This document shows, in pieces, positions 3,696-43,233 of a stretch of 64,000 nt of DNA. The notes beneath the pieces were generated by a model. It searched no databases. It saw only the letters and a list, made by a program, of their open reading frames with translations, and was not told where the DNA came from. Source of the DNA: an uncultured Candidatus Saccharibacteria bacterium (GTDB lineage: Bacteria > Patescibacteriota > Minisyncoccia > Phycocordibacterales > CALRHW01); contig CAYMIL010000001.1 in the NCBI GenBank assembly GCA_964390845.1, forward strand, positions 11,307 to 75,306. Direction: 5' to 3'. The first letter of the stretch is position 1; every line of letters begins with the position of its first letter. The position numbers and the translations under genes were made by a program.

Positions 3696-4130
3696 ATGAG
3701 GCGATTACTGTACAACGATGCATTTTTAAAAACATATGGAGATGCGCTTATGGTCGCGCTTCGTTTGGGGCTCGCGCTCATCTTTATCTGGTTTGGCGCA
3801 CTCAAAGTCTTTGGTTTCAACCCTGTGTTTGATCTCATCTACTATTCTATGGTGCCAGCGTTTGCACATGGTGTAGGTCTTTTGTGGCTTGGTGTTGCCG
3901 AGCTTTGTATTGGTGTGATGCTTGTTATCAATCGAGCGCTTATCTTCACGCATCTTGTGCTTCTCGGACATCTCATCGGCACATTTTCTACGTTTCTATT
4001 TGGCTGGCATGTTATCTTTGATCCGTATTTTCCAGTGCTATCTCTTTCTGGTGAATTCGTCGTAAAAAATATGGTGCTTGCAATAAGCGGTCTTGTGGTG
4101 CTTGTGTTTGAATTGCGTCGTAGTAGATAG
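3696..4130 (+). CDS. DoxX-like/DUF417-like small integral membrane protein, paralog 2
   Basis: VALRLGLALIFIWFGALKVFGF aligns with paralog at 586-1020; 4 TM. Confidence 0.5.
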   Translation: MRRLLYNDAFLKTYGDALMVALRLGLALIFIWFGALKVFGFNPVFDLIYYSMVPAFAHGVGLLWLGVAELCIGVMLVINRALIFTHLVLLGHLIGTFSTFLFGWHVIFDPYFPVLSLSGEFVVKNMVLAISGLVVLVFELRRSR

Positions 4131-4160
4131 TTGAAAGTGTATTGGGGTGATATGTAAAAA

Positions 4161-4188
4161 CGCGCGACCCTGTTGTGAGGGTCGCGCG
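4161..4188 (-). terminator. rho-independent terminator (11-bp perfect stem CGCGCGACCCT/AGGGTCGCGCG, loop GTTGTG, T-run on minus strand)
   Basis: inverted repeat read directly; on minus strand followed by TTTTTAC. Confidence 0.55.
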
Positions 4189-4301
4189 AGAAATGCAGCG
4201 AGATGCGGTCATGGCGTCAGTACGGCTTGTGCACCAAAGAACAGCGCGCCTACCGACAGTGCCGCGAGGATGCCGGCAAACGTGTCGTCGAGCATGATGC
4301 C

Positions 4302-4778
4302 TCATACGCCTGGGCATTTTTCCGCGGTCGATACTGGTACGGGCTTGAGGGTATCGAACACACGGAACATGATGAGTGCCGCCACAAGCCACCAGAACTG
4401 GAGCCACGCATCTCCAACGGGGAACAGGAACACGGCGAGCCCCGCGATTGCCTGACCGTGCACTTCATCGATGTTGGTCTCGTTGAAGTCGTGCGAGGTT
4501 TCTTCGCCTGTGTGTCGCTTGCGCTTGCCCCAGCGGGTTGCCATGAAGTGTTCGGCCGTGCCAACGAAGCACAGTCCGAGCATGAACGACGTCACGACGA
4601 GAACCAGCGAAGCGGTCCAGTCGTACCCCTGCCACACGAACATGCATTGGATGGCGAAGGCAACGAGGCTGCCCATGAGACCGCCGCCGGCTCCTGCCTT
4701 GCGGAGAATGATTCCTGGGATGAAGCCACTGAAGCCACCACTTGAAACTCCGATCGCACAAAGGGCGAGTATGTTCAT
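4302..4778 (-). CDS. pgpA: phosphatidylglycerophosphatase A (PgpA family), in ~62% GC island
   Basis: alignable to E. coli PgpA blocks (GSG..PGT.GSL, IDEVHG.., WLVAALIMFRVFDTLKPVPV vs WVAAGFVIFRILDMWKPWPI); GGAGGG SD before ATG (MNIL...). Confidence 0.6.
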   Translation of the reverse strand: MNILALCAIGVSSGGFSGFIPGIILRKAGAGGGLMGSLVAFAIQCMFVWQGYDWTASLVLVVTSFMLGLCFVGTAEHFMATRWGKRKRHTGEETSHDFNETNIDEVHGQAIAGLAVFLFPVGDAWLQFWWLVAALIMFRVFDTLKPVPVSTAEKCPGV

Positions 4779-4922
4779 ACGCGCACCCTCCTTTCTCTGG
4801 ATGTATATAGAACAATCCGACACAATGTACCATGATATTTTTATTTTGACTATGTTTCTATTGTCGATTAGTATTATTCACGGAATTAAGAACAACATCT
4901 GCGTCGTGCGCAAGGAGGCACC

Positions 4923-7477: not shown

Positions 7478-7942
7478 ATGACACACAAACATATCACCGT
7501 ATTGCGCAAAGAGTCGCTTGTACAAATGATTAAAAACGCCCCTGGGACGCGTTTGTTCAACTCACTTATCGTGCGTCATGAAGATACGGGTCGTGTGGAA
7601 GATGTATTTCAAGATGGAAATCTTTCTTGTGCAGCATTTGTCAGTAGTTTGCTAACGCTCACGACTATGCTTTCCGAGCCACGAGCAACCGTTGCTTCAC
7701 TCCGCGCTGTTATAGAAGAATCTTCGCAATGGGAGTCTGTTGATGTGGCGAACGTAGAACCTGGAGATGTTGTGTTTTGGGCAACACAGCGTTTTGATAA
7801 CGGCGAAGATCACGCTCATGTTGGTTTTGTGTTGAATTCAGAGGAGGCGGTTTCTACCGACTACAAAGTTCGCGCTGTAGCGAAACATCCACTTGTGGGA
7901 ACGAGAGTAATCGACGCGGTGTTTAGGTATCGTGTTATCTAA
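7478..7942 (+). CDS. hypothetical protein, possible papain-like/NlpC-P60-like Cys-His fold
   Basis: conserved-looking LSCAAF ... GDVVFW ... HVGFV arrangement; no firm family call. Confidence 0.4.
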   Translation: MTHKHITVLRKESLVQMIKNAPGTRLFNSLIVRHEDTGRVEDVFQDGNLSCAAFVSSLLTLTTMLSEPRATVASLRAVIEESSQWESVDVANVEPGDVVFWATQRFDNGEDHAHVGFVLNSEEAVSTDYKVRAVAKHPLVGTRVIDAVFRYRVI

Positions 7943-7999
7943 AAGAGAAAGCCACCCAGATTCTTGCGAACCCAGGTGGCCTACGGGAGGGAAAAGCTC

Positions 8000-8431
8000 T
8001 CACTGTTTCGCGAGTTTCTGCTTGTGAGCCTCGGAAACAGACTTGTTGAGTCGTTCGATGAACGGCGCGGCACTTTCGGGCCACTTTCCGTCCGGATGCA
8101 CTTTGGTGTGGGTGAACACACCATTGCGATCTCGAAGTGAAAATGATTCCCATCGTCCATCTGCCTTGATGTCGCGCGCAGTGAGCAGGGTGAAGTCGGC
8201 GAACCTCATGCTCATCGGCGTGAGTATCACGACGCGGTCGTCGTAGCCCGTCTGCGAGTTGTAGTCCTCGCGCACGTTTACGGTACAACCGTCGTAGGAA
8301 CTCAGGTATTCCATGGGCGGATGTGGTGTCACATCGCCCTTGTTGTCTAGCCCGAGGAATACGAGCACCATGAGCGGGAGCGCTGCTGCGAAAGCAATCG
8401 CCCCACGAACCCTTGCGTATGTCCGAGTCAC
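8000..8431 (-). CDS. hypothetical secreted/membrane-anchored protein (high-GC island; GTG start with GGAGGAG SD; alternative ATG at 8485)
   Basis: N-terminal hydrophobic anchor AIAFAAALPLMVLVFLGL; GC-rich codon third positions. Confidence 0.4.
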   Translation of the reverse strand: MTRTYARVRGAIAFAAALPLMVLVFLGLDNKGDVTPHPPMEYLSSYDGCTVNVREDYNSQTGYDDRVVILTPMSMRFADFTLLTARDIKADGRWESFSLRDRNGVFTHTKVHPDGKWPESAAPFIERLNKSVSEAHKQKLAKQ

Positions 8432-8464
8432 GTCTTCTCCTCCATGAAAAGAGCTTGTTGACCT

Positions 8465-8520
8465 CTGGATTCCCCCGGAATCCATGACAAGGCCTTCACT
8501 ATTGATATTACCATATATGG
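8465..8520. promoter_or_regulatory. divergent intergenic region with two perfect palindromes: TGGATTCC-CCC-GGAATCCA (8465-8483) and ACCATATATGGT (8509-8520)
   Basis: read directly; lies between divergently oriented high-GC ORFs. Confidence 0.35.
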
Positions 8521-8570
8521 TAGAATTAAAAAGGATTTTGACATACCCTCATTTCGTGGAGACATCCACC

Positions 8571-9242
8571 ATGGATGGTCATTCCGTCGTTGCTGACGGC
8601 GTTTCTACGCACGCACCCCACATCAAAAAGAAGGAGGTTTCTTGTGGTGCTGAAGAAGCAGTGAATGCTTTTAAGCTCTACAGCATTTCAAAGCAGGTAG
8701 AATCGTTTGCTCGCCGTGGAGTTCGGAGGGGGTGTTCTCCCTTCGACTTCGAATGTCCGCGTGGGCATGGTATGCAAGGAAACATACTTGTTCCGAGAAT
8801 TGAGTTTCTCGGACGCAACAGAGAGGAGGCTGGTGTTCGGCTTGTGCGTGTGTTTGGAACCATGCTCAAGCATCGGTTTTCGAGCGTAGACCTGCGGGGT
8901 TCGACACTCGAAGACAAGACGACGCGCGGTCTTGCTCGTGTGCAGGAGTATCACATCAATCGAAACATGCAGTTCGTGGCACTGCCGGTACGCGTAGTGG
9001 TTGCTCAGTCTGACACACGCGACGACGAATTTGGCCTCGGCCTTGTCGAGACTATGTCGTTTGTGATGACCCATGTGCCTCGGTTGTGGGCACTTTATTC
9101 TGCCATTGGCACGTTTTCGATCCCGTGTCTTGGGGAGCGATTCTTCGAATTCGTCTTCCGTGATGGCGTGGTTGAGCTCGTTGCCTGTGAGCAGAATGCA
9201 GTGCTTCAGCGTGTGCATGTGTGGGCAACATGCTGGCGGTAG
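8571..9242 (+). CDS. hypothetical protein (high-GC island; ORF opens at 8484, ATG with GGAGA SD at 8571)
   Basis: long ORF with GC-rich third positions; no recognisable domain. Confidence 0.4.
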   Translation: MDGHSVVADGVSTHAPHIKKKEVSCGAEEAVNAFKLYSISKQVESFARRGVRRGCSPFDFECPRGHGMQGNILVPRIEFLGRNREEAGVRLVRVFGTMLKHRFSSVDLRGSTLEDKTTRGLARVQEYHINRNMQFVALPVRVVVAQSDTRDDEFGLGLVETMSFVMTHVPRLWALYSAIGTFSIPCLGERFFEFVFRDGVVELVACEQNAVLQRVHVWATCWR

Positions 9243-9263
9243 CGCGAGGGCTGTTCGTTGGAT

Positions 9264-9310
9264 AAAAAGGGGCCGGACGCGTTGCGCGTCCGGCCCTCTT
9301 CTTCTTTTTT
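9264..9310. terminator. bidirectional rho-independent terminator (GGGGCCGGACGCG-TTG-CGCGTCCGGCCC flanked by A-run and T-run)
   Basis: 12-bp GC stem read directly; convergent genes end on both sides. Confidence 0.6.
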
Positions 9311-10010
9311 ATAACCCCACCCCTTTCAAAAATTCTTTGAGTTCTTCACCTCGAACCTCTCGATATCCACCTTCCGGCGCACCTGAGAGTGTAAGGTTCA
9401 TCACTCGAGTTCGTTGCAAATCGGTAACATCATTAAAAAGTGCAACAACCATGCGTCGAATCTGATGCTTCTTTCCTTCGGTGAGCGTAATACGAAATGC
9501 GTGATCGTTGAGAATCTGTACCTTGCATGGTTTGGTGATGTGGTCGCCGATGTCTACGCCACCTTCCATTTTTTGTTTAAAATTTTTCCTAATTTTTTCT
9601 CGAGTTCGCACAAGGTATTCTTTTTCGTGCGCGCTATCTGGGTTGAGGAGGCGGTCTGTTACACGGCCATCGTTGGTAAGAATAAGAAGACCGCGTGAGT
9701 TTTTGTCGAGACGACCAACAGGAAATACATCACGCAAGCCCGAGGCCGTTCGTGCATCACGCTCACCCATTTGTGGGGAATGAGTGATAACACCCTTTGG
9801 TTTGTTGTATACGTAATATCTGTACTGCACAGGACCTGTCTTTCCGAGGCGCACCTCGACGACGTCTCGTTCTTGAACCTTGTCACCAAGTTGGGCGAGC
9901 TTGCCATTGATGAACACCTTCTTACGTTCAATAAGCTCGTCTGCGCCACGGCGTGTCGAGTATTTTTTGAGAGCGAGATATTTGTTTATTCGAATCGGGT
10001 ATTCCTCCAT
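9309..10010 (-). CDS. pseudouridine synthase, RsuA/RluB family (S4 domain + catalytic domain)
   Basis: IRINKYLA (S4-like), GRLDKNSRGLLILTNDG catalytic Asp motif. Confidence 0.7.
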   Translation of the reverse strand: MEEYPIRINKYLALKKYSTRRGADELIERKKVFINGKLAQLGDKVQERDVVEVRLGKTGPVQYRYYVYNKPKGVITHSPQMGERDARTASGLRDVFPVGRLDKNSRGLLILTNDGRVTDRLLNPDSAHEKEYLVRTREKIRKNFKQKMEGGVDIGDHITKPCKVQILNDHAFRITLTEGKKHQIRRMVVALFNDVTDLQRTRVMNLTLSGAPEGGYREVRGEELKEFLKGVGL

Positions 10011-10110
10011 GTGATGGCAAAACTATACTTCATAAAATATATTTTGTCAAAACACAGTACAAGACTTTTTTGCTATACTCTATACATTACTCATTAGAGA
10101 TTGTAATCGT

Positions 10111-11102: not shown

Positions 11103-11125
11103 CACGATGCAACGTTGTCATCGTG
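11103..11125. promoter_or_regulatory. inverted repeat CACGATG-N9-CATCGTG (spacer contains CAACGTTG) overlapping the pilB GTG start
   Basis: read directly. Confidence 0.25.
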
Positions 11126-12265
11126 TCTGTCATAGAAATCGTCAACACACTCCTCGAGCGCGCGAGGCTCTCATGTGCATCCGATATACATCTTCAGCCT
11201 ACACACCACAATGTGCGTGTGCGTTTTCGTGTTGATGGCGTGTTGCGCGACGAAGATACTCTCGACATACAGACGTATCCGGAAATTGTGTCGAGAATAA
11301 AAATTCTTTCGCACCTGCGTACTGATGAAAGAAATGCTCCTCAAGATGGTCGTTTTTCCTATGGCGGAGGAGATGTGCGAGTGTCATGTGTGCCATCGCA
11401 TCATGGTGAGTGTGTGGTGCTGAGATTACTTATGTATACGATGGGTAATTGTTCGTTGGAAAGCATGGGTTTTTCAGAAGGTGATGTGCAAAAGATATAC
11501 AGGGCACTTCAAAAACAGTGGGGTATGGTGCTTGTTACAGGTCCAACGGGTTCCGGAAAAACAACAACACTTTATTCACTTGCAAAAATTCTCAACAAAC
11601 CAGATGTTTCGATTGTAACAATCGAGGATCCGGTCGAATATGCGGTGGATGGAATGAAACAGATCAATATCAATCCGCGTAGTGGTCTTACGTTTGCACA
11701 TGGACTTCGTTCGGTGCTGCGGCAAGATCCAGACATTATCATGGTCGGCGAAATTCGAGATACAGAAACTGCACACATCGCAACGCATACAGCACTGACG
11801 GGGCACATGTTGTTGTCTACGCTACATACTGTCGATGCATCTTCTGCAATACCTAGGCTCGTCGATATGGGCGTTGAACCGTTTCTGATTTCCTCGACAC
11901 TTACAATGGTGATTGCTCAAAGACTTGTACGAAAAATATGTCCACAGTGCAAAACGACGCGAACACTTTCTCAAGCACAACGCAATGCACTGATGGGTGC
12001 ATACGGTTGGGAGATATCGTCTGTATATTATGGCGCAGGATGTGACGTGTGTGGACGCTGCGGCTTTGTTGGGCGTGAGGTGCTCGCTGAGATTCTTGAG
12101 GTGGATCAACACATACGAGATGTGATTGTGCATTCCCACGATGCGTCACACGTTCGTGCCGTTGCGCGTGAACATGGCATGGTCTCGATAGCGTCTCAGG
12201 GATTGGGCAAGATTATGCAGGGAGTCACGACACTTGAAGAGGTGCTTGAGCTTCTTCACGAATAA
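11123..12265 (+). CDS. pilB: type IV pilus/type II secretion assembly ATPase, GspE/PilB family (short form lacking N1 domain)
   Basis: Walker A GPTGSGKTTTLYS, Asp/His boxes, C-terminal tetracysteine CPQC...CDVCGRCG. Confidence 0.8.
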   Translation: MSVIEIVNTLLERARLSCASDIHLQPTHHNVRVRFRVDGVLRDEDTLDIQTYPEIVSRIKILSHLRTDERNAPQDGRFSYGGGDVRVSCVPSHHGECVVLRLLMYTMGNCSLESMGFSEGDVQKIYRALQKQWGMVLVTGPTGSGKTTTLYSLAKILNKPDVSIVTIEDPVEYAVDGMKQININPRSGLTFAHGLRSVLRQDPDIIMVGEIRDTETAHIATHTALTGHMLLSTLHTVDASSAIPRLVDMGVEPFLISSTLTMVIAQRLVRKICPQCKTTRTLSQAQRNALMGAYGWEISSVYYGAGCDVCGRCGFVGREVLAEILEVDQHIRDVIVHSHDASHVRAVAREHGMVSIASQGLGKIMQGVTTLEEVLELLHE

Positions 12266-12269
12266 ACAG

Positions 12270-13313
12270 ATGAGTGGTCTCAAAAAACAAGCGCACATGA
12301 TGTCTCGGATGGCGTTTCTTATGCGTGCGGATATGTCTGTCATAGAAAGCATACGGCTTTTGTGTGATCAGGCTCGATCACCTCGAGAGCGTAGGTTATT
12401 TGAAGCGCTTATATCGGGTGTTGCACGCGGAGACGCATTCAGCGATTGTCTTACATCTATACAACCACCATTTGATACTCTTGCGATTTCTATGATTCGC
12501 ACCGGTGAACGTACGGGAACACTTGCGCATACATTGTTTCTTGTCGCCGAAGAGCTTACCAAGCGAGAACGTCTTCGAAGAAAAATGACGTCCGCATTTC
12601 TGTATCCAGTGTGTATTGCTGTTGCAACGCTTGGTATTGCGGGAACAATTGTTCTCTATGTACTCCCTAAAATTACGCCGATTTTTTCTGGTATGGGAAA
12701 AGAGTTGCCATTCACAACCCGAACACTGATTGCAATTCACCATATTCTGCAGATCTACTGGGTGTGGTTTGTGCTCGTTGTGGCGATGTTGTGCGTGACA
12801 TCGTGGTATGTTTGGAGCAAGACAAAACGCGCACGCATGGTAGTGGAGCAAGTGCTTGTGCGTGTACCACTGTGTGGCGGTATCCTGCGTCGATATGAAA
12901 TTATCAGAGCGTGTCGGACAATCAGTACAATGCTTTCCGCCACAATTCCTATAGAAAAAGTTTTTTATGCGACAGCAGAAAGCGCATCCTTTGTATTGTA
13001 CGCAGAAGTGTACAAGCATGCTGCGCTTCGCGTAACGTCTGGTGCGCCACTGTATGTAGCACTAGCTGATTATGCATATGTATTTCCAGATATGGTGGTG
13101 CCCATGGTGCGCGTCGGTGAATCCTCTGGAAGTCTGCGTGATGTCTGCGTGCACCTCGCTGATCTATATGAAAAAGAGCTCGACGATATTGTTAAAAATC
13201 TTTCGAGCGTGATTGAGCCGGTGCTTATGGTGGTGATGGGTCTTCTCGTGGGTTTTATTGCAATTTCTATTATTAGTCCTATATATGGGATCACACAACA
13301 GCTTAGGCGGTAG
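12270..13313 (+). CDS. pilC: type IV pilus platform protein, GspF/PilC family (two T2SSF domains)
   Basis: duplicated T2SSF-like halves, 3 TM; follows pilB by 4 nt. Confidence 0.7.
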   Translation: MSGLKKQAHMMSRMAFLMRADMSVIESIRLLCDQARSPRERRLFEALISGVARGDAFSDCLTSIQPPFDTLAISMIRTGERTGTLAHTLFLVAEELTKRERLRRKMTSAFLYPVCIAVATLGIAGTIVLYVLPKITPIFSGMGKELPFTTRTLIAIHHILQIYWVWFVLVVAMLCVTSWYVWSKTKRARMVVEQVLVRVPLCGGILRRYEIIRACRTISTMLSATIPIEKVFYATAESASFVLYAEVYKHAALRVTSGAPLYVALADYAYVFPDMVVPMVRVGESSGSLRDVCVHLADLYEKELDDIVKNLSSVIEPVLMVVMGLLVGFIAISIISPIYGITQQLRR

Positions 13314-13320
13314 GGCATTT

Positions 13321-13749
13321 ATGGTGGAGGGCTTTACTCTTATAGAAGTGCTTGTCGTTCTTGCAATAACAAGCATGTTGTTTTTATGCGCGCCATTTTT
13401 AGATATTTCTGCTGTCGTACATACGTCTCCGCGTGATGAGGCACGTATCTTTTCACATGCGCTCCACGTGGCGAGAACTGCTTCACTAAACGGTATCAAT
13501 AATGATGCGCATGGCGTGCACGTTGGAGATGGTGTCTTTGTTGTGTTTTCTGGTAGCCAGTATCGTGAAGGTGTAGATGTAGATATTGAGTTCCCAAGAA
13601 ATATGTCTATAGATGTAGAGCCGTCAAACATTGATACTGTATTTGAAAAAGGAACAGCAGTGCATGGTAAACGTACTGTTGTGATGTTTGGTCACGGTGA
13701 ACATGCTGTGGCTGTAACGATTGGCTATGAAGGAGGAATTGATTTTTAA
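13321..13749 (+). CDS. prepilin-type N-terminal cleavage/methylation domain pseudopilin
   Basis: GFTLIEVLVVLAI class III signal motif. Confidence 0.6.
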   Translation: MVEGFTLIEVLVVLAITSMLFLCAPFLDISAVVHTSPRDEARIFSHALHVARTASLNGINNDAHGVHVGDGVFVVFSGSQYREGVDVDIEFPRNMSIDVEPSNIDTVFEKGTAVHGKRTVVMFGHGEHAVAVTIGYEGGIDF

Positions 13750-15118
13750 ACATCGAGGATTTTCGACACTGGAAATTATTATCGCGGTGGCGATTGTGTT
13801 GATTGCGCTCGCTGTGGCGGCGAGCGCTCTCTTTTCTGTAGACCTATCTACACTCGGCGGCGAGCTATCCCTTGCCTCAGTCTCTACGCTTGAAAAATAT
13901 TTTATAGAAATTTCACAATCTTCGAATGATACTGTCTCAGTGGGCACAGATATTACACAGTGTATACAAAGGGTACACATAGAAGATGTGGGGCTTATAC
14001 GTGGTATTCCTCGCGCGGTATCCGCTGAGTTTCTTGTTGTCGATACACATTTCCCTGAGCAAATTAAGGAAAGTTGTTATGCTCCCGAACCACACGCGCA
14101 AGATTGGGCTGAGTATTCGGTGCAGTCTTTTTTGCTGTCAGATGTTGTGCACCAAGAAACGATTACTGATATTGATGTCGTGTCTGGTATCGCGTACATA
14201 TCTCTCACAAGTGATAGTCCCACAAGCACAGATTTGATTGTATTTGATACCGAGCAGGGTTCTGTGATTTCATCAACTGATATTGGGAAAGGAATTGTCG
14301 CACTTGATGCAATACAAGGTTATGTGTTTACTGCAAATGAAAGCTCAACAACACAGCTCTCTGTTATTCGTACAGACACACTAGAGCATCCCACTGTTGT
14401 AGCGGAGCGCGGCTTGCAAGGTGTCGACCCATACGGCTCTTTTCCGTATGGTAGAAGCGTTACGTATGTTGACGGTATCGTCTATGTTGGTACACGAGAA
14501 ACAGCTGGACCAGAATTTCACATGTTTGACGTGCACAACCTCGAGTCTCCCTATGAGGTTAGTTTTCTTGAGTTATCTCATAATGTTCACGATATCTCTG
14601 CAAAAAATGGCTTTGCATATCTTGCAACATCTGCGGACACAAAAGAAATTATCATTCTTGATGTACATGACCCATGGACGATACATGAAGTCGGGTCATT
14701 TAACGCAGGCACAAGCGCGAGTGCGGATAGGGATGCAATGAGTGAGTATCTCATTGGCACAACACTCTATGCTGGTCGTCGGCGCGGTAACGCGCAGACT
14801 CGAGAGTTGTATGCGATAGACATGGCTTCTTCAACGGCACCGTTGGAACGTTTTTCCGTGCGTGTACCACTTTCTGGTACAACACATATCAGTGGGCTCA
14901 TCGCGCAGGGAAATGTGCTGTTTGTATCGAGTACAGATCCAGCGTACGGTTTTAGTGTGTATGACATGTCAGATGTTGGGAATGTACGACGTTTAGAGAC
15001 TACCGTGTTTGCTGAAGCTATCGATGCACTTGATAGTGAAAATGGAGTGGTCTATGGTGTGAGTAATTCTAAAAAGAGTATCTATGTATTCAAACCATCG
15101 AGGGTTTACGCTCATTGA
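13721..15118 (+). CDS. large pilin-like protein: prepilin N-terminus fused to LVIVD-repeat beta-propeller-like domain
   Basis: RGFSTLEIIIAVAIV prepilin motif; at least 6 repeats of G(F/I/V)AY...(I/V)(F/L)D(V/T)..P type. Confidence 0.55.
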   Translation: MAMKEELIFKHRGFSTLEIIIAVAIVLIALAVAASALFSVDLSTLGGELSLASVSTLEKYFIEISQSSNDTVSVGTDITQCIQRVHIEDVGLIRGIPRAVSAEFLVVDTHFPEQIKESCYAPEPHAQDWAEYSVQSFLLSDVVHQETITDIDVVSGIAYISLTSDSPTSTDLIVFDTEQGSVISSTDIGKGIVALDAIQGYVFTANESSTTQLSVIRTDTLEHPTVVAERGLQGVDPYGSFPYGRSVTYVDGIVYVGTRETAGPEFHMFDVHNLESPYEVSFLELSHNVHDISAKNGFAYLATSADTKEIIILDVHDPWTIHEVGSFNAGTSASADRDAMSEYLIGTTLYAGRRRGNAQTRELYAIDMASSTAPLERFSVRVPLSGTTHISGLIAQGNVLFVSSTDPAYGFSVYDMSDVGNVRRLETTVFAEAIDALDSENGVVYGVSNSKKSIYVFKPSRVYAH

Positions 15119-15545
15119 GGTACTCATCTATATCGGTTTGCTGTCTGTCATACTTTCCGGCGTTTTTGTGACAGCTGTATATCTTATTGAGTACGGCGAT
15201 GCGCGTACTCGGAAGATTGAAACCTTGGAGGATAGTCAATTCGTGATAGAAAAAATACAATCTTTTCAAAATTTTGGTTTTGACGTGGTGGAGCCAGCGG
15301 TTGGTGCAACAAGCTCAAAGCTTATTCTCGAGCGTGGAGATGAGCGTGTGAGTGTGTACGCAAGCACTGGTGCTGTGTTACTGCAGAGAAATGATGGTCT
15401 ACCAGAAGCGCTTACGCGACGTGGTCTGTTTGTTCATGCATCGAGTACGCTCGAATTTTCTTTTCTTGAAGAGGGTGGTGTGTTTGTGTATTTATTCATG
15501 AATGGTTTGTTATCTACTACACATATATGGATGTATGGCGTATAA
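15084..15545 (+). CDS. prepilin-type pseudopilin
   Basis: MYSNHRGFTLIEVLIYIGLL. Confidence 0.5.
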   Translation: MYSNHRGFTLIEVLIYIGLLSVILSGVFVTAVYLIEYGDARTRKIETLEDSQFVIEKIQSFQNFGFDVVEPAVGATSSKLILERGDERVSVYASTGAVLLQRNDGLPEALTRRGLFVHASSTLEFSFLEEGGVFVYLFMNGLLSTTHIWMYGV

Positions 15546-15916
15546 GACAGGGGGGTTATATTGCAGTAATGTCGGCAGTAGTGCTGTCGGTGGTATTAAT
15601 GGCGCTGTCCGTGCGTCTATCTGTTGCAGGTCTTTCGACGAAGTGGGCTAGTGTGTACCATGAAGGGCGCGCACGCGCTCAATTTCTCGTGTATTCGTGC
15701 ATTGATGTCGCGAGGCTATTTGTCGCTCAACATAGTTCTTATGGTGACGTGTACACCGTGCCGGTGGGAGACGAGGAGTGCACAATAGCGTTTGTGCAAA
15801 GAGATGGCCAGTATATTGTGGTGGATAGTTCGGCACAGGTCTCAGAGAGTCTTTTGGGTGTACGAGTTTCTATCGACACCCATTCTCCCACCTATGAGTG
15901 GCATATCGTGCGCTGA
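15527..15916 (+). CDS. pilus-operon membrane protein (possible PilX-like minor pilin)
   Basis: N-terminal hydrophobic helix, position in pilin operon; no canonical G-F motif. Confidence 0.35.
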   Translation: MDVWRIRQGGYIAVMSAVVLSVVLMALSVRLSVAGLSTKWASVYHEGRARAQFLVYSCIDVARLFVAQHSSYGDVYTVPVGDEECTIAFVQRDGQYIVVDSSAQVSESLLGVRVSIDTHSPTYEWHIVR

Positions 15917-15935
15917 GTTTGATACAATACACAAC

Positions 15936-17177: not shown

Positions 17178-17325
17178 CCCATTGCGTCTTTAATATTTGT
17201 GTTGTACGATATTTCTTGGTAGTTCATCGTTGTGTTTTCGCGTTGGATTCCACTGTGCGTGTCCCTATGGATGGGGCTGCCTGTGCCCGACAGTTTTCGG
17301 GTAACATCGCGTTTGGAGAATTGTC

Positions 17326-17838
17326 TTGACCTCTTACCTCGAACACTACAAGAAGAAGTTGGCTCGCGATCGCAGCAGTCCTGCGATGCGACAGGCGCGG
17401 CGTCCGACCGGAGCTCCTCTCATCATCCCCGATGACGAGCAGAAGCGTCTGGATCGGATCAAGAAGCGCCGCGCTGCTGAGATCGCCGCGCGTAAGCGCA
17501 AGCTTGAGAAGCCGGACCCGCCTCCGCGCGAGCTCGGGTGGATGCGCTTCGTGCGCTACGTTGTCGATGGGAAGGAGATGTACTGGCCTTCTGGCGGCCC
17601 TGTGTGGGTTGCGTATCAGGACAACACGATGTTCGTCCTGCCGGAGGGCTGTCTGCTCTTTCACGGTCGCAACGTTGAGGATTTCGAGATTGAGTGCCGT
17701 GAGGGTGCTCGGGTTGAGCTCCCGTCGCTTCCCAACGTCGCGCCCGTGTCCGCAATGACTGCCGGACCCAAGGATTTCCGTGTCGTCGTGGAGGAATTCA
17801 CCATGCCCAAGGCAAGCAAGAAGCGTGTCGCGGCCTAG
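17326..17838 (+). CDS. hypothetical basic N-terminus protein in ~60% GC island (TTG start, GGAGAA SD)
   Basis: strong GC3 bias in this frame versus antisense ORF 17224-17901. Confidence 0.4.
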   Translation: MTSYLEHYKKKLARDRSSPAMRQARRPTGAPLIIPDDEQKRLDRIKKRRAAEIAARKRKLEKPDPPPRELGWMRFVRYVVDGKEMYWPSGGPVWVAYQDNTMFVLPEGCLLFHGRNVEDFEIECREGARVELPSLPNVAPVSAMTAGPKDFRVVVEEFTMPKASKKRVAA

Positions 17839-17873
17839 GCTGGGCATCAACAAGCGCAGAAAACACAATCCCT

Positions 17874-17910
17874 GGGGAGTTGGCTTACGCCGACTCCCCA
17901 CATTTTTTTC
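17874..17910. terminator. bidirectional terminator GGGGAGTTGGC-TTAC-GCCGACTCCCC + T7
   Basis: read directly; loop contains stop codon of minus-strand gene. Confidence 0.55.
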
Positions 17911-18256
17911 TATACAAAGCGTCTATTTTTTCAGCAAGAATAAAATCGTTTTCAGAAAGACTGTTGAGTGAGTGGGTGTAGAGGGTAAGTGTGACTTTGT
18001 TCCAGTCGTGCAGAGAGATGTTGGGGTGGTGCCCTTCAGCTTCTGCGATTGCACCAACATCATTTACAAAACCGAGTGCTTCAGAAAAATCTTTGAATTT
18101 TAATGTTTTTTCAATTCGAATATCGTCAATAAGGCTCCATTGGTTGAGCCCCTCTTTTAAATTCATCGCCGCTTCGATATCCAGAGCACCGTCCGCGTCT
18201 TCACAGGGTACACAATGTTTTTCTTCTCGTCGTTGAGAATTATTCTTTTCCGTCAT
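17885..18256 (-). CDS. pterin-4a-carbinolamine dehydratase (PCD/DCoH family)
   Basis: EAEGHHPNISL ... LTLYTHSLNSLSEND motif pattern. Confidence 0.65.
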   Translation of the reverse strand: MTEKNNSQRREEKHCVPCEDADGALDIEAAMNLKEGLNQWSLIDDIRIEKTLKFKDFSEALGFVNDVGAIAEAEGHHPNISLHDWNKVTLTLYTHSLNSLSENDFILAEKIDALYRKKCGESA

Positions 18257-30076: not shown

Positions 30077-30149
30077 GGGCCCTTAGCTTAGTTGGTAGAG
30101 CGCCTCATTTGCAATGAGGAGGTCATCGGTTCGAATCCGATAGGGTCCA
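30077..30149 (+). tRNA. tRNA-Ala(UGC), CCA not encoded
   Basis: cloverleaf folded by hand: 7-bp acceptor with G3:U70, anticodon loop TTTGCAA, T-arm GGTTCGAATCC. Confidence 0.85.
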
Positions 30150-30851
30150 CAACACATTGTTCCATGCCTCCAAAGTTAGTTTTCCTGAGTCTTCATTTTT
30201 TGTATATATAGTTACACTAGCATTTTTGGGTGCATTTTTTCCTTTCAGAAATTCTTCCATTTCCTCCCACGTCATCTCGTCTAAGATAAATCGAAAACAT
30301 TGGATGATTCGCCCATGTGTAACTAGCACTACGGTTTTGTCTTCGTAGGTGGTATAGAGTTCTTTAAGAAATGGTTTGAGGCGCTGTTCGATAACATCCA
30401 TCAAACTTTCACCGCCAACTGGTCGTGCAAACAAACCTCCAACAATGTCCCAATAGTGTTGTATGTAGGGAAAGTAAAGATTCTTGTCAGCCTCAAGGAG
30501 TACGTGGGTGTACCCACTTTCTCGTTCCCTGAGCGATAAATGTTCCTTAATCGGGATAGAGTTATTTTCATATGCGGTTAGTAGTTCTGTCGTTGTCTGT
30601 CGGGTTCTTTGATAACCAGAGTGGAACAATACATCTGGAGTGCCAATAAGTTCTTTGAGATGTTTAGACGTTTCTCGAGCCTGAAGAATTCCTGCGTTGG
30701 TAAGATTGATTTTATGATCCGGAATTTTTGAAAGAGACTCAAGTCCAGACGGGTCTTCGGTAAATAGTGCGTCGTTTGCTGCCTTATTTTTTTCTGATTC
30801 CGCGTGACGAATGAGGATAAGTTTTTTTGGAGTTCCTGACATATTTTTCAT
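30123..30851 (-). CDS. histidine phosphatase superfamily (phosphoglycerate mutase-like) protein; 3' end overlaps tRNA-Ala antisense by 27 nt
   Basis: LIRHAESEKN (RHG-type) and VLVTHG motifs. Confidence 0.55.
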   Translation of the reverse strand: MKNMSGTPKKLILIRHAESEKNKAANDALFTEDPSGLESLSKIPDHKINLTNAGILQARETSKHLKELIGTPDVLFHSGYQRTRQTTTELLTAYENNSIPIKEHLSLRERESGYTHVLLEADKNLYFPYIQHYWDIVGGLFARPVGGESLMDVIEQRLKPFLKELYTTYEDKTVVLVTHGRIIQCFRFILDEMTWEEMEEFLKGKNAPKNASVTIYTKNEDSGKLTLEAWNNVLWTLSDSNR

Positions 30852-30961
30852 GCTAGCACAGGTTGTGTATTGGTGCACGACTATGCTATAAATTTATGCA
30901 TATCAGCGTGGGTCGAAACTCGCGCGCAGTTCTTTGGGGAAACAGAAAGAAGGTGATAGCT

Positions 30962-31573
30962 ATGACGTGTCGTTCCGTTCCAACCTCAGTCGTCATCGTT
31001 GGTGAGGCGGGGACGGGAACGTCCTCCCTTCTCAGTGCGCTTCACAGCCAACTCAGTTTCAGGTGCCGTTCGGCGGGTAGTGAGGTGCGCAGGGCGCTTA
31101 TTCAGCGCAATGTCGACATCAACAACCCGGGCAGTCTCTATGAGACCGACGAGGAGTTTGACCTGAGGATTGACAGAGCGAATCGAGAGTTCATTGCCGA
31201 TGACGGCACCGCTCTCGACTGCCGACTCGGCCTGCTTGCGACAGAGGGCATGAGTCACGTGCTCAAGGTCAGACTCATCTGCGATCCGGAAGTGCGCTAC
31301 CAGCGCATCGCCGCACGCGAAGGGATTGCCCTCAGCCAAGCGGCAGAGCGAACGAAGGCTCGCGACGAACGCGACCTCAGGCGCCTCTCGACCATCTACA
31401 AGAAGACCCGCCAGGAGATCTACGGACTTCATCACTTCGATCGGGTGTTCGATACCACGGATACCTCGACGGAAGTGTGTGTTCGCGTGATCCAGAGCCT
31501 GTGCGCGCTCCCTCTCTTCGATGGGACCACCGTTCCCATGACCTGCTGTGGCCGATGTGCCAACGGCCGGTGA
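30962..31573 (+). CDS. P-loop kinase resembling archaeal-type (type 2) cytidylate kinase, in ~58% GC island
   Basis: IVGEAGTGTSSL Walker A; LKVRLICDPEVRYQRIAAREG...ERDLRR lid/C-terminal pattern; GAAGGTGA SD. Confidence 0.45.
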   Translation: MTCRSVPTSVVIVGEAGTGTSSLLSALHSQLSFRCRSAGSEVRRALIQRNVDINNPGSLYETDEEFDLRIDRANREFIADDGTALDCRLGLLATEGMSHVLKVRLICDPEVRYQRIAAREGIALSQAAERTKARDERDLRRLSTIYKKTRQEIYGLHHFDRVFDTTDTSTEVCVRVIQSLCALPLFDGTTVPMTCCGRCANGR

Positions 31574-31593
31574 ACAACGCCCCCCCCAACTAG

Positions 31594-31637
31594 CCCTGTG
31601 CACCGCCCTCAAGGTGGTGTACGGGGTTATTTTTTTG
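31594..31637 (+). terminator. rho-independent terminator (CCCTGTGCACC...GGTGGTGTACGGGG with G:U pairs, then TTATTTTTTTGTTG)
   Basis: folded by hand. Confidence 0.45.
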
Positions 31638-31654
31638 TTGTAAAATAAGCTGTA

Positions 31655-31678
31655 ATGACGGGTCTGTATATCCGTCAT
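31655..31678. promoter_or_regulatory. palindrome ATGACGG-N10-CCGTCAT 6 nt upstream of ECF sigma start
   Basis: read directly. Confidence 0.3.
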
Positions 31679-31683
31679 ATTCT

Positions 31684-32196
31684 ATGGATTCGCGCACAGA
31701 GGCACAATTTCTTGAGTCATATAAGGAACACGCTGATGCTTTGTTCCGATATTGCTACTTTAAGACCCTTCAGCGAGAAGAGGCAAAAGACATGCTTCAG
31801 GATGTATTCGTAAAGACATGGGAATATATCAACAAGGGAGGTGAGGTAGAAAATATGAAGGCATTTTTGTATCGAACAGCTCACAATATAGTTGTCGATC
31901 ACTATCGCAAGAAAAAGACCGTCTCGCTAGACGACCTCGCAGATCAGGGTTTTGATCCTGGCGCGGATACCACACAAGAACTTGAAAACCAGATAGATGG
32001 CGCGCATGCGATTTCTCTACTCAACAAAATTCCCGATGCGTATCGCGATGTGATTTTTATGCAGTATGTTGATGGTCTCAGTGTAAAAGAAATTGCAGAT
32101 ATTCTTGGAGAAACACCAAACAATGTCTCAGTAAAAATTCACCGAGGACTTGAAAAGTTGCGAAAAGTATACAACGACAATGGATCCAGAAATTAA
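31684..32196 (+). CDS. ECF-subfamily RNA polymerase sigma-70 factor
   Basis: sigma70 region 2 and region 4 (GLSVKEIADILGETPNNVSVKIHRGLEKLR). Confidence 0.8.
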   Translation: MDSRTEAQFLESYKEHADALFRYCYFKTLQREEAKDMLQDVFVKTWEYINKGGEVENMKAFLYRTAHNIVVDHYRKKKTVSLDDLADQGFDPGADTTQELENQIDGAHAISLLNKIPDAYRDVIFMQYVDGLSVKEIADILGETPNNVSVKIHRGLEKLRKVYNDNGSRN

Positions 32197-38392: not shown

Positions 38393-38421
38393 GTTTAAAT
38401 TTGCCCAAAAACTGGTATAAT
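38393..38421 (+). promoter_or_regulatory. sigma70 promoter TTTAAA-N17-TATAAT with TG extension; ATG 9 nt after -10 (leaderless-type)
   Basis: read directly. Confidence 0.35.
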
Positions 38422-41958: not shown

Positions 41959-43233
41959 GTGGGGATGTTTTCGTATGGTAGAATATATGGCATGGATGTA
42001 CTGATACATATTTTACGTTCAGAAATATTGTGGAGCATATTGTCGTGGATATACACGCTTACTCCGTTATGGCTCCCCATCGTTCTCCTTATTATATTTT
42101 TTAAAAAATGGATTGCTCTTATTCAGACACAGTTTATTGAAAAAGAGGGTTCTGTATTGCTTGAGATTAAGCTCCCACAAGAAATTACAAAATCTCCTGC
42201 GGCGATGGAGCTTGTATTGCTCTCAATGCACCAGCTCGCGAAAAATAACCTCATCGATGCATATATTACTGGCAAAACTCGGCCATGGTTTTCTCTTGAG
42301 CTCGTATCAATTGGCGGTTCGGTAAAGTTCTTCATCTGGGCGCGCAAACGCTTCCGCAAGATGGTTGAGACACAGATTTACGCCCAGTATCCAACAGTCG
42401 AGGTGCACGAAGCGCAAGACTACGCGATGGAAGTACATCATCCGGGAAAGCTTACGCGTAAAGACCTGATGCCGTTTTGGGCAGGGCATTTTGTACTCAC
42501 AAAAGATGATGTGTATCCGATAAAGACATATATCGACTACGGGCTCGATAAAGATCCAAAGGAAGAGTACAAGATTGATCCAATGACACCAATGCTCGAG
42601 TATCTTGGTTCACTAAAGCCGGGGGAACAGGCGTGGGTGCAAATTTTGATTCGAGCACACCGAAAAGAAGGCTTTACAGACATCCGTCTTTCTAAAAAGC
42701 CAGATTGGACTGATGCTGGCAAGAAAGAGATCAAAGAAAAGATGGAAAAGTTGAAAGAGGAAGGGGAAAATGGTTCTCGAACTCGTCAACCTACAAAAGT
42801 TGAGGCCGATGTTATTACCGCGCTTGAGCGAAGTCTCACAAAGGCACCTTTCGAGGTGGGTATTCGTGGTTTTTATATCGCGCCCCCAGATGTATTTAAC
42901 CCAGCAAATATTCCGGGTATTATTGGAAGCTTCAAACAGTACGGCTCAGAGCATCTCAACGGCTTTAAGCCATCAAAGGCGACGACATTTGATTTCCCAT
43001 GGCAAGATTTCGGACGCCGCAAACAAACTAAAAACGAAAAAAAAATGCTTGAAGCATATAAGCGCCGATCATTCTTTGAGATACCGTTTAAGTTTTACCG
43101 CGTTGACCCCTTTATCCTAAATGTTGAAGAGCTCGCGACAATTTTCCACTTCCCAGGACGTGTTGCGACAACACCTACAATTCAAAAGACAACCTCAACA
43201 AAGGGTCAGCCTCCACCAAATCTTCCTGTATAG
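41959..43233 (+). CDS. hypothetical membrane protein (N-terminal TM pair, large soluble domain)
   Basis: 12 nt after upstream gene, 4 nt before mltG. Confidence 0.4.
   Translation: MGMFSYGRIYGMDVLIHILRSEILWSILSWIYTLTPLWLPIVLLIIFFKKWIALIQTQFIEKEGSVLLEIKLPQEITKSPAAMELVLLSMHQLAKNNLIDAYITGKTRPWFSLELVSIGGSVKFFIWARKRFRKMVETQIYAQYPTVEVHEAQDYAMEVHHPGKLTRKDLMPFWAGHFVLTKDDVYPIKTYIDYGLDKDPKEEYKIDPMTPMLEYLGSLKPGEQAWVQILIRAHRKEGFTDIRLSKKPDWTDAGKKEIKEKMEKLKEEGENGSRTRQPTKVEADVITALERSLTKAPFEVGIRGFYIAPPDVFNPANIPGIIGSFKQYGSEHLNGFKPSKATTFDFPWQDFGRRKQTKNEKKMLEAYKRRSFFEIPFKFYRVDPFILNVEELATIFHFPGRVATTPTIQKTTSTKGQPPPNLPV

Follow-up and report, generated by a model that had tools for sequence, protein, structure and literature searches.

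Dyad symmetries between divergent genes recall the operators of TetR-, LacI- or Cro-like regulators, and divergent promoters of the extended -10 type (TGn-TATAAT) are known from E. coli and Gram-positive bacteria. At the RNA level, mRNA-stabilising stem-loops at the 5' terminus are known from the ompA leader of E. coli and from the aprE and ermC leaders of B. subtilis. At the scale of whole genomes, frequent single-gene acquisition has been reported for Patescibacteria (PMC12455944). The locus that we describe here can be compared with each of these systems.

The locus, at positions 7935-9310, is found in a 64-kb window (the whole stretch of DNA that was analysed) of a Paceibacterota genome, a member of the candidate phyla radiation. 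It harbours two divergent genes of hypothetical function, called P1 and P2 in the following, and the flanking genes code for a valyl-tRNA synthetase (ValRS), an NlpC/P60-like protein, an RluB-type pseudouridine synthase and a DoxX protein. A previous interpretation of the letters alone, hereafter the sequence-only reading, had proposed a self-contained, high-GC cassette under the control of a transcription factor. The features that it listed, i.e. ORFs, dyads, hairpins and GC content, are all present at or near the positions where it had placed them. We nevertheless prefer another reading, to which we give a probability of about 0.6. The locus would consist of two independent single-gene transcription units coding for lineage-specific orphan proteins. 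Both units probably arrived by horizontal transfer, jointly or one at a time, from a donor with a moderately higher GC content, and they now carry host-type expression signals. Taken as a whole, it appears to be an ordinary pair of orphan genes, real but unremarkable, and probably of horizontal origin. Its features are as follows.

7939-7982, minus strand: intrinsic terminator of P1, with a 15-pair stem (7982-7949, including G-U pairs) and a U-rich tail (terminator scan, fold energy)
8000-8431, minus strand: P1, orphan protein of 143 aa (GTG start, open frame, coding score)
8466-8484, minus strand: perfect 8-3-8 dyad TGGATTCC-CCC-GGAATCCA, present as a single copy in the window
8505-8513, minus strand: extended -10 element TGGTAATAT for P1, with a transcription start predicted near 8498 from the motif
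8510-8521, no strand assigned: 12-bp perfect palindrome ACCATATATGGT, the overlap zone of two TGG(T) extended -10 elements plus a 4-bp TATA spacer
8518-8526, plus strand: extended -10 element TGGTAGAAT for P2, with a transcription start predicted near 8533 from the motif
8558-8562, plus strand: GGAGA as ribosome-binding site of P2, 8 nt ahead of its ATG (sequence reading)
8571-9242, plus strand: P2, orphan cytoplasmic protein of 223 aa (ATG start, open frame, coding score)
9260-9312, no strand assigned: bidirectional intrinsic terminator common to P2 (plus) and to the gene of the RluB-type pseudouridine synthase (minus, 9309-10010) (terminator scan, fold energy)

Both divergent ORFs look genuinely coding. 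Across the locus, positive coding scores are confined to these two frames (+0.079 for P1 and +0.110 for P2), all other frames in the two segments being negative, and GC1 exceeds GC2 in both, a coding-like pattern. The public gene calls use other start codons. For P1, translation from ATG 8485 would yield a protein of 161 aa and would put the 19-bp dyad inside codons 1 to 7, while the GTG at 8431 is preceded by a GGAGGAG sequence (8443-8437) at the correct spacing for a ribosome-binding site. For P2, the called ATG at 8517 (241 aa) is overlapped by the -10 element of this gene, and the coding score over 8484-8570 is negative (-0.18), which argues against the longer form. For the two hypothetical genes, the likely start codons are GTG 8431 for P1 and ATG 8571 for P2, a correction of the public calls.

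P1 is predicted to start with a signal anchor at residues 10-28, in the positive-inside orientation and with a Kyte-Doolittle maximum of 2.42, to continue with about 115 aa of beta-rich domain and to end in a C-terminal helix. Its AlphaFold single-sequence model is of low confidence (pLDDT 54). Based on these predictions, we tentatively describe P1 as anchored in the membrane by a single pass, N-in, and as exposing a small beta-rich domain on the extracytoplasmic side, and the sequence-only reading had likewise taken one member of the divergent hypothetical pair for a secreted or anchored protein. A fold search with the P1 model returned nothing at E <= 0.001; the best match, LolA, was rejected as a fold relative (E = 0.047, TM 0.27). 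P2 contains six Cys residues and no transmembrane segment, with a pI of 8.8, and is tentatively described as a soluble protein with six cysteines. It was left out of the fold search because its AlphaFold single-sequence model (pLDDT 31) is unusable. Residues 23-52 of P2 had suggested a helix-turn-helix regulator, an idea that no profile supports.

P1 and P2 are true orphans in all libraries searched, P1 by word-seeded search and P2 also exhaustively. The word-seeded searches returned only the queries themselves, and an exhaustive HMMER search of 1.84 billion representatives with P2 yielded P2 and three artefacts. In the latter (P0003-P0005), one match of 33-35 residues at 34-37% identity is added up across the 8-10 tandem repeats that adhesin-like proteins contain, and they were discarded. 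Neither protein matches a family in Pfam, PHROGs, PADLOC or NCBIfam or a sequence in the PDB, and none of the known anti-phage defence or toxin-antitoxin families was recognized in them with PADLOC, PHROGs or Pfam. No match was found in phage, plasmid and viral-contig collections or in 160 related loci, and the 64-kb window contains no paralogues.

The spacer of 139 bp between the two genes harbours both symmetrical elements. The most plausible reading of the palindrome ACCATATATGGT is a pair of extended -10 promoter elements placed back to back, of a type also in use elsewhere in the genome. TGGTAGAAT and TGGTAATAT each have a TG one base upstream of a hexamer close to TATAAT, and neither is accompanied by a good -35 hexamer. 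Transcription would proceed leftward from TGGTAATAT and rightward from TGGTAGAAT, which lie 4 bp apart, with the starts predicted from the motifs. The exact 9-mer TGGTAGAAT recurs at 41976, upstream of another gene. More generally, nine of the 19 occurrences of TGnTAn[AT]AT have the ATG of an ORF of at least 100 aa within 4-50 nt downstream, compared with a background of 13.5% (p = 4e-4); in the controls, 20% of hexamers devoid of the TG and 15% of reversed motifs are near gene starts. The stricter motif was used instead of a looser one, TGGTAnnnT, which fails to discriminate gene starts. The 12-bp palindrome arises because the symmetry of the two outward -10 elements creates it, and the symmetry continues imperfectly over 8502-8529, with 15-nt arms that are 80% complementary. 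Perfect 12-bp palindromes are not enriched in the window (20, for 17.3 +/- 4.3 expected), the chance of finding one in a 139-bp spacer is about 0.038, and the adjacent divergent spacer contains an AT-rich 12-bp palindrome of a similar kind. Neat palindromes in divergent spacers can thus result incidentally from extended -10 promoters that stand back to back.

The 19-bp dyad is located outside both -10 elements. Counted from the predicted transcription starts, it covers about +15 to +33 for P1 and -49 to -67 for P2. It is the sole copy in the 64-kb window, with three mismatches in the next best site. The window has no excess of perfect inverted repeats with 8-bp arms either (10, for 8.2 +/- 3.0 expected), and the chance of finding one in a 139-bp spacer is about 0.018. 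The presence of the dyad and the 12-bp palindrome in one spacer is mildly unusual, and neither is remarkable by itself. On the RNA of the minus strand, the dyad forms the core of a composite stem-loop of 14 pairs (8494-8460). This strand folds at -17.7 kcal/mol (z = -2.64, with 3 of 200 shuffles as good), versus -12.3 kcal/mol (z = -1.64) for the plus strand, and the G-U pairs that lengthen the stem are present only on the P1 transcript. When folded within the whole P1 leader, the hairpin has a z-score of only -1.8. The stem and the 5' end that the promoter motif predicts for the P1 mRNA are about 4 nt apart. Close to its 5' end, the P1 mRNA would thus most likely carry the dyad as a stable stem-loop, which might shield the transcript and/or hide the upstream AUG at 8485, such that initiation would take place at GTG 8431, where the Shine-Dalgarno sequence is strong. 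We slightly favour an RNA stem-loop over an operator, and a perfect DNA dyad would suit a dimeric DNA-binding protein just as well. At the gathering threshold, an Rfam scan of the whole window for known RNA families detected only a tRNA-Ala, and a permissive scan of the locus gave only sub-threshold, terminator-like matches.

Each transcription unit has its own terminator. The left hairpin (7949-7982) qualifies as a terminator only when read on the minus strand, with a fold energy of -24 kcal/mol (z = -2.66), and its U-rich tail runs into the convergent NlpC/P60-like gene, whose stop codon it overlaps. The right hairpin (9269-9297) has 13 and 12 pairs, 11 of them G-C, T-runs on both strands and a fold energy of -35.5 kcal/mol (z = -4.07). 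The P1 transcript would end at its own, strand-specific intrinsic terminator, and that of P2 at the bidirectional one common to the convergent rluB-like gene. The two hairpins had been regarded as the bounds of an inserted block. They are simply terminators, of P1 on the left and of the convergent P2/RluB pair on the right, and do not mark the borders of an island.

The GC content of 7935-9310 is 53.5%, for a window mean of 45.9% (standard deviation 4.0% in 300-bp windows). The proposed atypical composition between housekeeping genes is thus borne out, with raised GC and with ValRS and the RluB-type enzyme on the flanks. The excess is real but modest. Of four unrelated GC-rich islets in the 64-kb window, this segment deviates least, the other three reaching 62-64%. 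Those islets include a PgpA gene and a cytidylate-kinase-like gene; two of the three code for enzymes with clear homologues outside, one of which matches an archaeal-type CMP kinase model. The four islets have no similarity to one another at the DNA or protein level, and a common origin was rejected on that basis. Together, they fit with frequent single-gene acquisition (PMC12455944). At third codon positions, the GC content is 0.667 in P1 and 0.545 in P2, compared with 0.422 +/- 0.045 in 35 long backbone ORFs; the spacer between them is backbone-like, at 42% GC.

P1 and P2 are present in 7 of 7 contigs with identical flanking genes, which represent the same population. The nearest relatives are at most 79% identical in ValRS and at most 70% in RluB, and the gene order here is rearranged. 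No empty site was found among ValRS relatives, metagenome RluB relatives or contigs of the closest RluB homologues, all of which are distant relatives. The segment contains no mobility genes, the only tRNA gene of the window is not adjacent (30077), and the flanks show no direct or terminal inverted repeats other than short chance repeats. The searches identified neither a donor nor homologues in other lineages, phages or plasmids. Since the nearest relatives are too rearranged for synteny, we infer that the pair was probably acquired horizontally from its composition and orphan status only.

Rather unlikely, in our view, is that P1 and P2 are native, fast-evolving, lineage-specific genes that were never transferred, in which case the GC content would stem from a gene-specific amino-acid or codon composition or from a local mutational bias, and 'island' would be a misnomer. 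Candidate-phyla-radiation genomes are rich in hypothetical, lineage-restricted proteins, which counts for a native origin. A caveat on the fraction of hypothetical coding sequences is made in PMC12455944. The backbone-like GC content of the spacer and the host-type promoters also fit old, native, fast-evolving genes, as do the host-type ribosome-binding sites and terminators, the lack of a mobility signature, the fixation of the pair in all seven contigs and the modest size of the GC excess. Nevertheless, GC3 exceeds that of the backbone ORFs by about 5 standard deviations for P1 and about 2.7 for P2, and such a third-position bias is hard to derive from protein composition. Moreover, the shift in composition starts and stops at the boundaries of the transcription units, the three other islets are shifted alike, including the two with enzymes that have clear outside homologues, and homologues of P1 and P2 are missing even from relatives whose housekeeping proteins are 70-79% identical. 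It is very improbable, in turn, that one or both ORFs are not genes at all, being either frames left open by chance in GC-rich DNA, with its few stop codons, or remnants of a decayed element. The orphan status of both proteins and the pLDDT of 31 for P2 would be in keeping with this, as would coding scores (0.08-0.11) below the backbone mean of 0.27 and an antisense ORF of 176 aa that overlaps P2, of the sort expected from GC-rich DNA. However, the antisense ORF scores -0.16, and the annotated frame is the only positive one in each segment. The codon-position pattern fits coding sequences, each ORF has a promoter element, a correctly spaced ribosome-binding site and a terminator of its own, and the signal anchor of P1 is canonical and positive-inside.

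As for regulation, the sequence-only reading took both dyads for operator-like sites. Under this model, a dimeric regulator, whose gene would lie within the cassette or elsewhere, would bind them and control both divergent genes. The 8-3-8 dyad is perfect, single in the window and has a low chance of occurrence per spacer. The dyad is centred at about -58 relative to the predicted P2 start and +24 relative to that of P1, and judging from these positions a bound protein could activate one gene and block the other. At the 12-bp palindrome, which overlaps both -10 elements, a bound protein would repress both promoters. However, searches of P1, P2 and their sub-segments in Pfam, NCBIfam and among PDB sequences brought up neither a helix-turn-helix nor any other DNA-binding domain, even at E <= 10 for the sub-segments, and no regulator gene adjoins the pair; the claim of transcription-factor regulation thus found no support. 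Neither did that of a regulon defined by the dyad, which has no second copy in the 64 kb searched. The palindrome is fully explained by the standard promoter type of the genome, and 12-bp palindromes occur at chance frequency, including in the next divergent spacer; its assignment as an operator is not supported. Finally, the dyad folds better on the P1-sense strand thanks to its G-U pairs. In light of these elements, we consider a self-contained, regulated cassette unlikely. A more elaborate scenario is highly unlikely. P1 and P2 would be the founders of two new families and form a functional module peculiar to this episymbiotic lineage, with P1 as a membrane-anchored beta-domain protein exposed at the surface and P2 as its Cys-rich partner in the cytoplasm; the dyad would serve as an operator from which P2 is activated, at about -58, while elongation of P1 is blocked, resulting in reciprocal expression.

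With two probably acquired single-gene units as our main reading, the locus matters little beyond annotation. P1 or P2 would be of some interest if either were a true surface factor for host attachment, although nothing points there specifically. The presence of several short, GC-rich single-gene patches in this genome fits with frequent small-scale gene acquisition in streamlined bacteria of the candidate phyla radiation.

Compared with the small acquired islets of Patescibacteria (PMC12455944), the locus is likewise a short, atypical segment with accessory or hypothetical genes amid housekeeping genes, and one of several such patches. It differs in being devoid of an integrase, a tRNA target, direct repeats, a donor or homologues, and since its proteins have no homologues, transfer is deduced here from GC3 alone. 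As in TetR-, LacI- or Cro-like systems, a perfect 8-3-8 dyad of typical operator length is found between divergent genes. Nevertheless, the locus lacks a regulator gene and a second site, the dyad is clear of both -10 elements, and its RNA fold is strand-asymmetric. Like the ompA, aprE and ermC leaders, P1 has a predicted stable hairpin a few nt from the 5' end and upstream of a strong Shine-Dalgarno sequence; the likeness is in the possible mode of action and not in sequence, and the 5' end of P1 is a predicted one. Lastly, as in the divergent extended -10 promoters of E. coli and Gram-positive bacteria, two outward TGnTAnnAT elements are found 4 bp apart, each preceding a ribosome-binding site and a start codon at a suitable distance. 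The transcription starts are predicted here from the motif, and the symmetry of the two elements happens to make a perfect 12-bp palindrome.

The window belongs to a metagenome-assembled genome from sample WANG18-1 / SAMN08389278, a member of the Paceibacterota (Patescibacteria, candidate phyla radiation). Within it, the orphan ORFs P1 and P2, their divergent 139-bp spacer and the surrounding hairpins make up the following locus.

7949-7982, minus strand: left hairpin of 15 pairs including G-U, with a U-rich tail and a terminator score on this strand only
8000-8431, minus strand: P1, 143 aa
8466-8484: perfect 19-bp dyad, TGGATTCC-CCC-GGAATCCA
8505-8513, minus strand: TG-G-TAATAT, predicted extended -10 element
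8510-8521: perfect 12-bp palindrome, ACCATATATGGT
8518-8526, plus strand: TG-G-TAGAAT, predicted extended -10 element
8571-9242, plus strand: P2, 223 aa
9269-9297: right hairpin with a 12-13 bp G+C stem and T-runs on both sides

All the features described in the sequence-only reading, i.e. both palindromes, both hairpins and a GC-rich segment, are present in the sequence. Its ORF coordinates are preferable to the public calls of 161 aa (P1) and 241 aa (P2). Codon-usage log-odds scores, with 35 long window ORFs as the training set, were positive in each segment for the annotated frame alone (+0.079 for P1 and +0.110 for P2), and GC by codon position followed a coding pattern in both genes. An antisense ORF of 176 aa within P2 scored -0.16, and the extension of P2 included in the public call (8484-8570) scored -0.18. 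GGAGGAG is found five bases upstream of the GTG at 8431, and GGAGA eight bases upstream of the ATG at 8571. Based on coding scores and ribosome-binding sites, we therefore prefer these starts. Alternatively, P1 might begin at the ATG at 8485, preceded at seven bases by GAAGG, a weaker motif than GGAGGAG. Within the P2 coding region, 8792-8813 also forms a perfect inverted repeat (8-bp arms around a 6-nt loop), one of three such 8-bp-arm repeats in the 1.4-kb locus among the 10 of the window.

P1 (pI 8.8) carries three Arg residues ahead of a hydrophobic stretch of 19 residues (10-28; Kyte-Doolittle 2.42) and has no lipobox cysteine. Its low-confidence model (pLDDT 54) places six beta-strands between two helices, the second of them C-terminal, and P1 may be signal-anchored in an N-in orientation, with a small beta domain outside the cytoplasm. 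P2 (pI 8.8, six Cys) has no hydrophobic segment, and its model is unusable (pLDDT 31). Neither protein matched Pfam, PHROGs, PADLOC, NCBIfam or PDB sequences; a word-seeded search of 5.8 billion clusters returned only the queries themselves, and phage records, plasmids and viral contigs yielded nothing. The fold search with the P1 model gave no significant match. An exhaustive HMMER search with P2 against 1.84 billion representatives collected P2 itself and three long repeat proteins, which we rejected as homologues. Their E-values were discounted because one short match (33-35 residues, 34-37% identity) was summed 8-10 times.

The segment 7935-9310 has a GC content of 53.5%, peaking at 58% and 57% over 300 bp, relative to a window mean of 45.9% (sd 4.0% in 300-bp windows). 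It is a modest GC-rich islet, the weakest of the four in the window. GC3 is 0.667 in P1 and 0.545 in P2, compared with 0.422 +/- 0.045 for the backbone (35 long window ORFs), while the spacer is backbone-like at 42% GC. The other three islets (4101-4850, 17201-17950 and 30851-31700; 62-64% GC) are unrelated single-gene islets, two of which encode enzymes with clear outside homologues, PgpA and a cytidylate-kinase-like protein.

At 4101-4850, an islet of the strongest type (62% GC), Pfam recognises PgpA in the minus-strand ORF 4302-4823 (E = 4e-11, passing the curated cut-off). The public call is an overlapping plus-strand ORF of 180 aa (4203-4745), which is probably annotated on the wrong strand, since it has no family match and the PgpA match lies opposite. 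The islet at 17201-17950 (64% GC) has ORFs overlapping on opposite strands, 17326-17838 (plus, 170 aa, GC3 0.74) and 17224-17901 (minus, 225 aa). As neither matches any family, this islet may be another orphan. At 30851-31700 (62% GC), ORF 30863-31573 codes for a cytidylate-kinase-like P-loop protein (8.5e-10 with Pfam Cytidylate_kin2; E = 3e-18 with the archaeal-type (d)CMP kinase model of NCBIfam, whose cut-off it does not reach). This ORF is flanked by a gene adjoining tRNA-Ala (30077-30150) and by ORF 31684-32196, which by eye looks like an ECF sigma factor.

The locus is present in all seven public contigs with identical ValRS or RluB proteins. The closest species representatives, Paceibacterota or similar, have ValRS proteins of 71-79% identity, and RluB identity to relatives is at most 64% in JGI metagenomes and 70% in a larger protein collection. 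Regarding the proposed insertion among housekeeping genes, the synteny comparison showed no P1- or P2-like genes in 160 related loci, and gene order is not conserved. The gene 3' of RluB codes for TatA/TatC in the near relatives L165 and L166 and for a BtpA-like protein in L168. In L164, Cyt-b5, Cupin and hypothetical genes precede TatA/TatC, a three-gene insertion relative to L165 (regions compared: L164 8721-10452, L165 4350-5214, L168 8763-9533; RluB 68-70% identity). The position 3' of RluB is variable across near relatives and may be a site of recurrent gene gain and loss; no empty site could be reconstructed. Just to the right of the locus, a cluster resembling type IV pilus/type II secretion genes spans 11123-15700, with a PilB-like ATPase, a T2SSF platform protein and N_methyl pseudopilins; such gene sets are typical of the competence or attachment machinery of candidate-phyla-radiation bacteria.

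The locus had also been viewed as a bounded block. The left hairpin (-24 kcal/mol), 17 nt past the P1 stop codon, is the P1 terminator, and the right one (-35.5 kcal/mol, z = -4.1) is a terminator common to the convergent P2 and rluB genes. Both are ends of transcription units rather than element borders. The analysis found neither direct nor terminal inverted repeats flanking 7935-9310, nor any tRNA or mobility gene near the locus.

Outward from the centre of the 12-bp palindrome, the plus and minus strands read as two putative extended -10 elements that face away from each other across 4 bp; the symmetry runs on imperfectly across 8502-8529. Predicted transcription starts are near 8533 (plus, P2) and 8498 (minus, P1). 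Similar elements (TGnTAnAAT) precede other genes:

TGGTACAAT: just 5' of the gene at 1787
TGATACAAT: just 5' of the gene at 15920
TGGTATAAT: just 5' of the genes at 38413 and 50791
TGGTAGAAT: just 5' of the gene at 41976

The ATG often lies merely 7-9 nt past the hexamer, a spacing that points to leaderless or near-leaderless mRNAs as a common feature of this Paceibacterota genome. Of 19 TGnTAn[AT]AT motifs, 9 have within the following 4-50 nt an ATG that opens an ORF of 100 aa or more, against a background of 13.5% (binomial p = 4e-4); the controls gave 20% (hexamer without TG) and 15% (reversed motif). The extended -10 is a promoter type used elsewhere in this genome. The palindrome, formerly described as operator-like, is a by-product of such paired promoters; a transcription factor is therefore unnecessary to account for it. 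In the next divergent spacer, RluB/DoxX (10011-10110), AAAATATATTTT at 10034 is likewise a perfect 12-bp palindrome, AT-rich and situated among the -10-like elements TATAGT (minus) and TGcTATACT (plus), suggesting that AT-rich palindromes in divergent spacers stem from promoter layout.

Both palindrome classes occur at chance frequency window-wide: 10 perfect inverted repeats (8-bp arms, 0-6 nt loops) against 8.2 +/- 3.0 expected, and 20 perfect 12-bp palindromes against 17.3 +/- 4.3. The chance of falling in this 139-bp spacer is ~0.018 and ~0.038, respectively. Given the predicted starts, the 19-bp dyad would span +15 to +33 of the P1 transcript and -49 to -67 of P2. In the minus-strand RNA, its 8-bp stem continues past a 4-nt bulge into six further pairs, including two G-U pairs possible on that strand only (-17.7 kcal/mol, z = -2.64; 3 of 200 shuffles folded at least as well); the plus-strand RNA folds at -12.3 kcal/mol (z = -1.64). 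The strand difference tips the balance slightly towards a role in the RNA. The stem starts ~4 nt from the predicted P1 5' end and holds the UG of the alternative AUG at 8485. It might protect the 5' end of the P1 mRNA or, alternatively, mask that AUG so that the GTG with the strong Shine-Dalgarno is used. A DNA operator is slightly less favoured. A perfect dyad suits a dimeric DNA-binding protein, and the z-score of the hairpin is only -1.8 in the whole leader; however, the dyad overlaps neither -10 element and has no second copy in the 64-kb window, the nearest site having three mismatches. Furthermore, no DNA-binding domain was found in or adjoining the pair, which argues against a transcription factor-regulated cassette. 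The dyad is modestly significant, an RNA stem-loop explaining it slightly better than an operator.

Based on GC3, orphan status and the three unrelated GC-rich islets, P1 and P2 were probably acquired horizontally. Alternatively, they are old, native genes, consistent with the backbone-like spacer and host-type promoters; therefore, either any transfer preceded adaptation of the expression signals, or the genes are native. Our preferred reading is an orphan gene pair with ordinary expression signals, probably acquired. The initial observation is confirmed and its interpretation partly supported; the locus is of a kind already known, a small islet of hypothetical genes with atypical composition.
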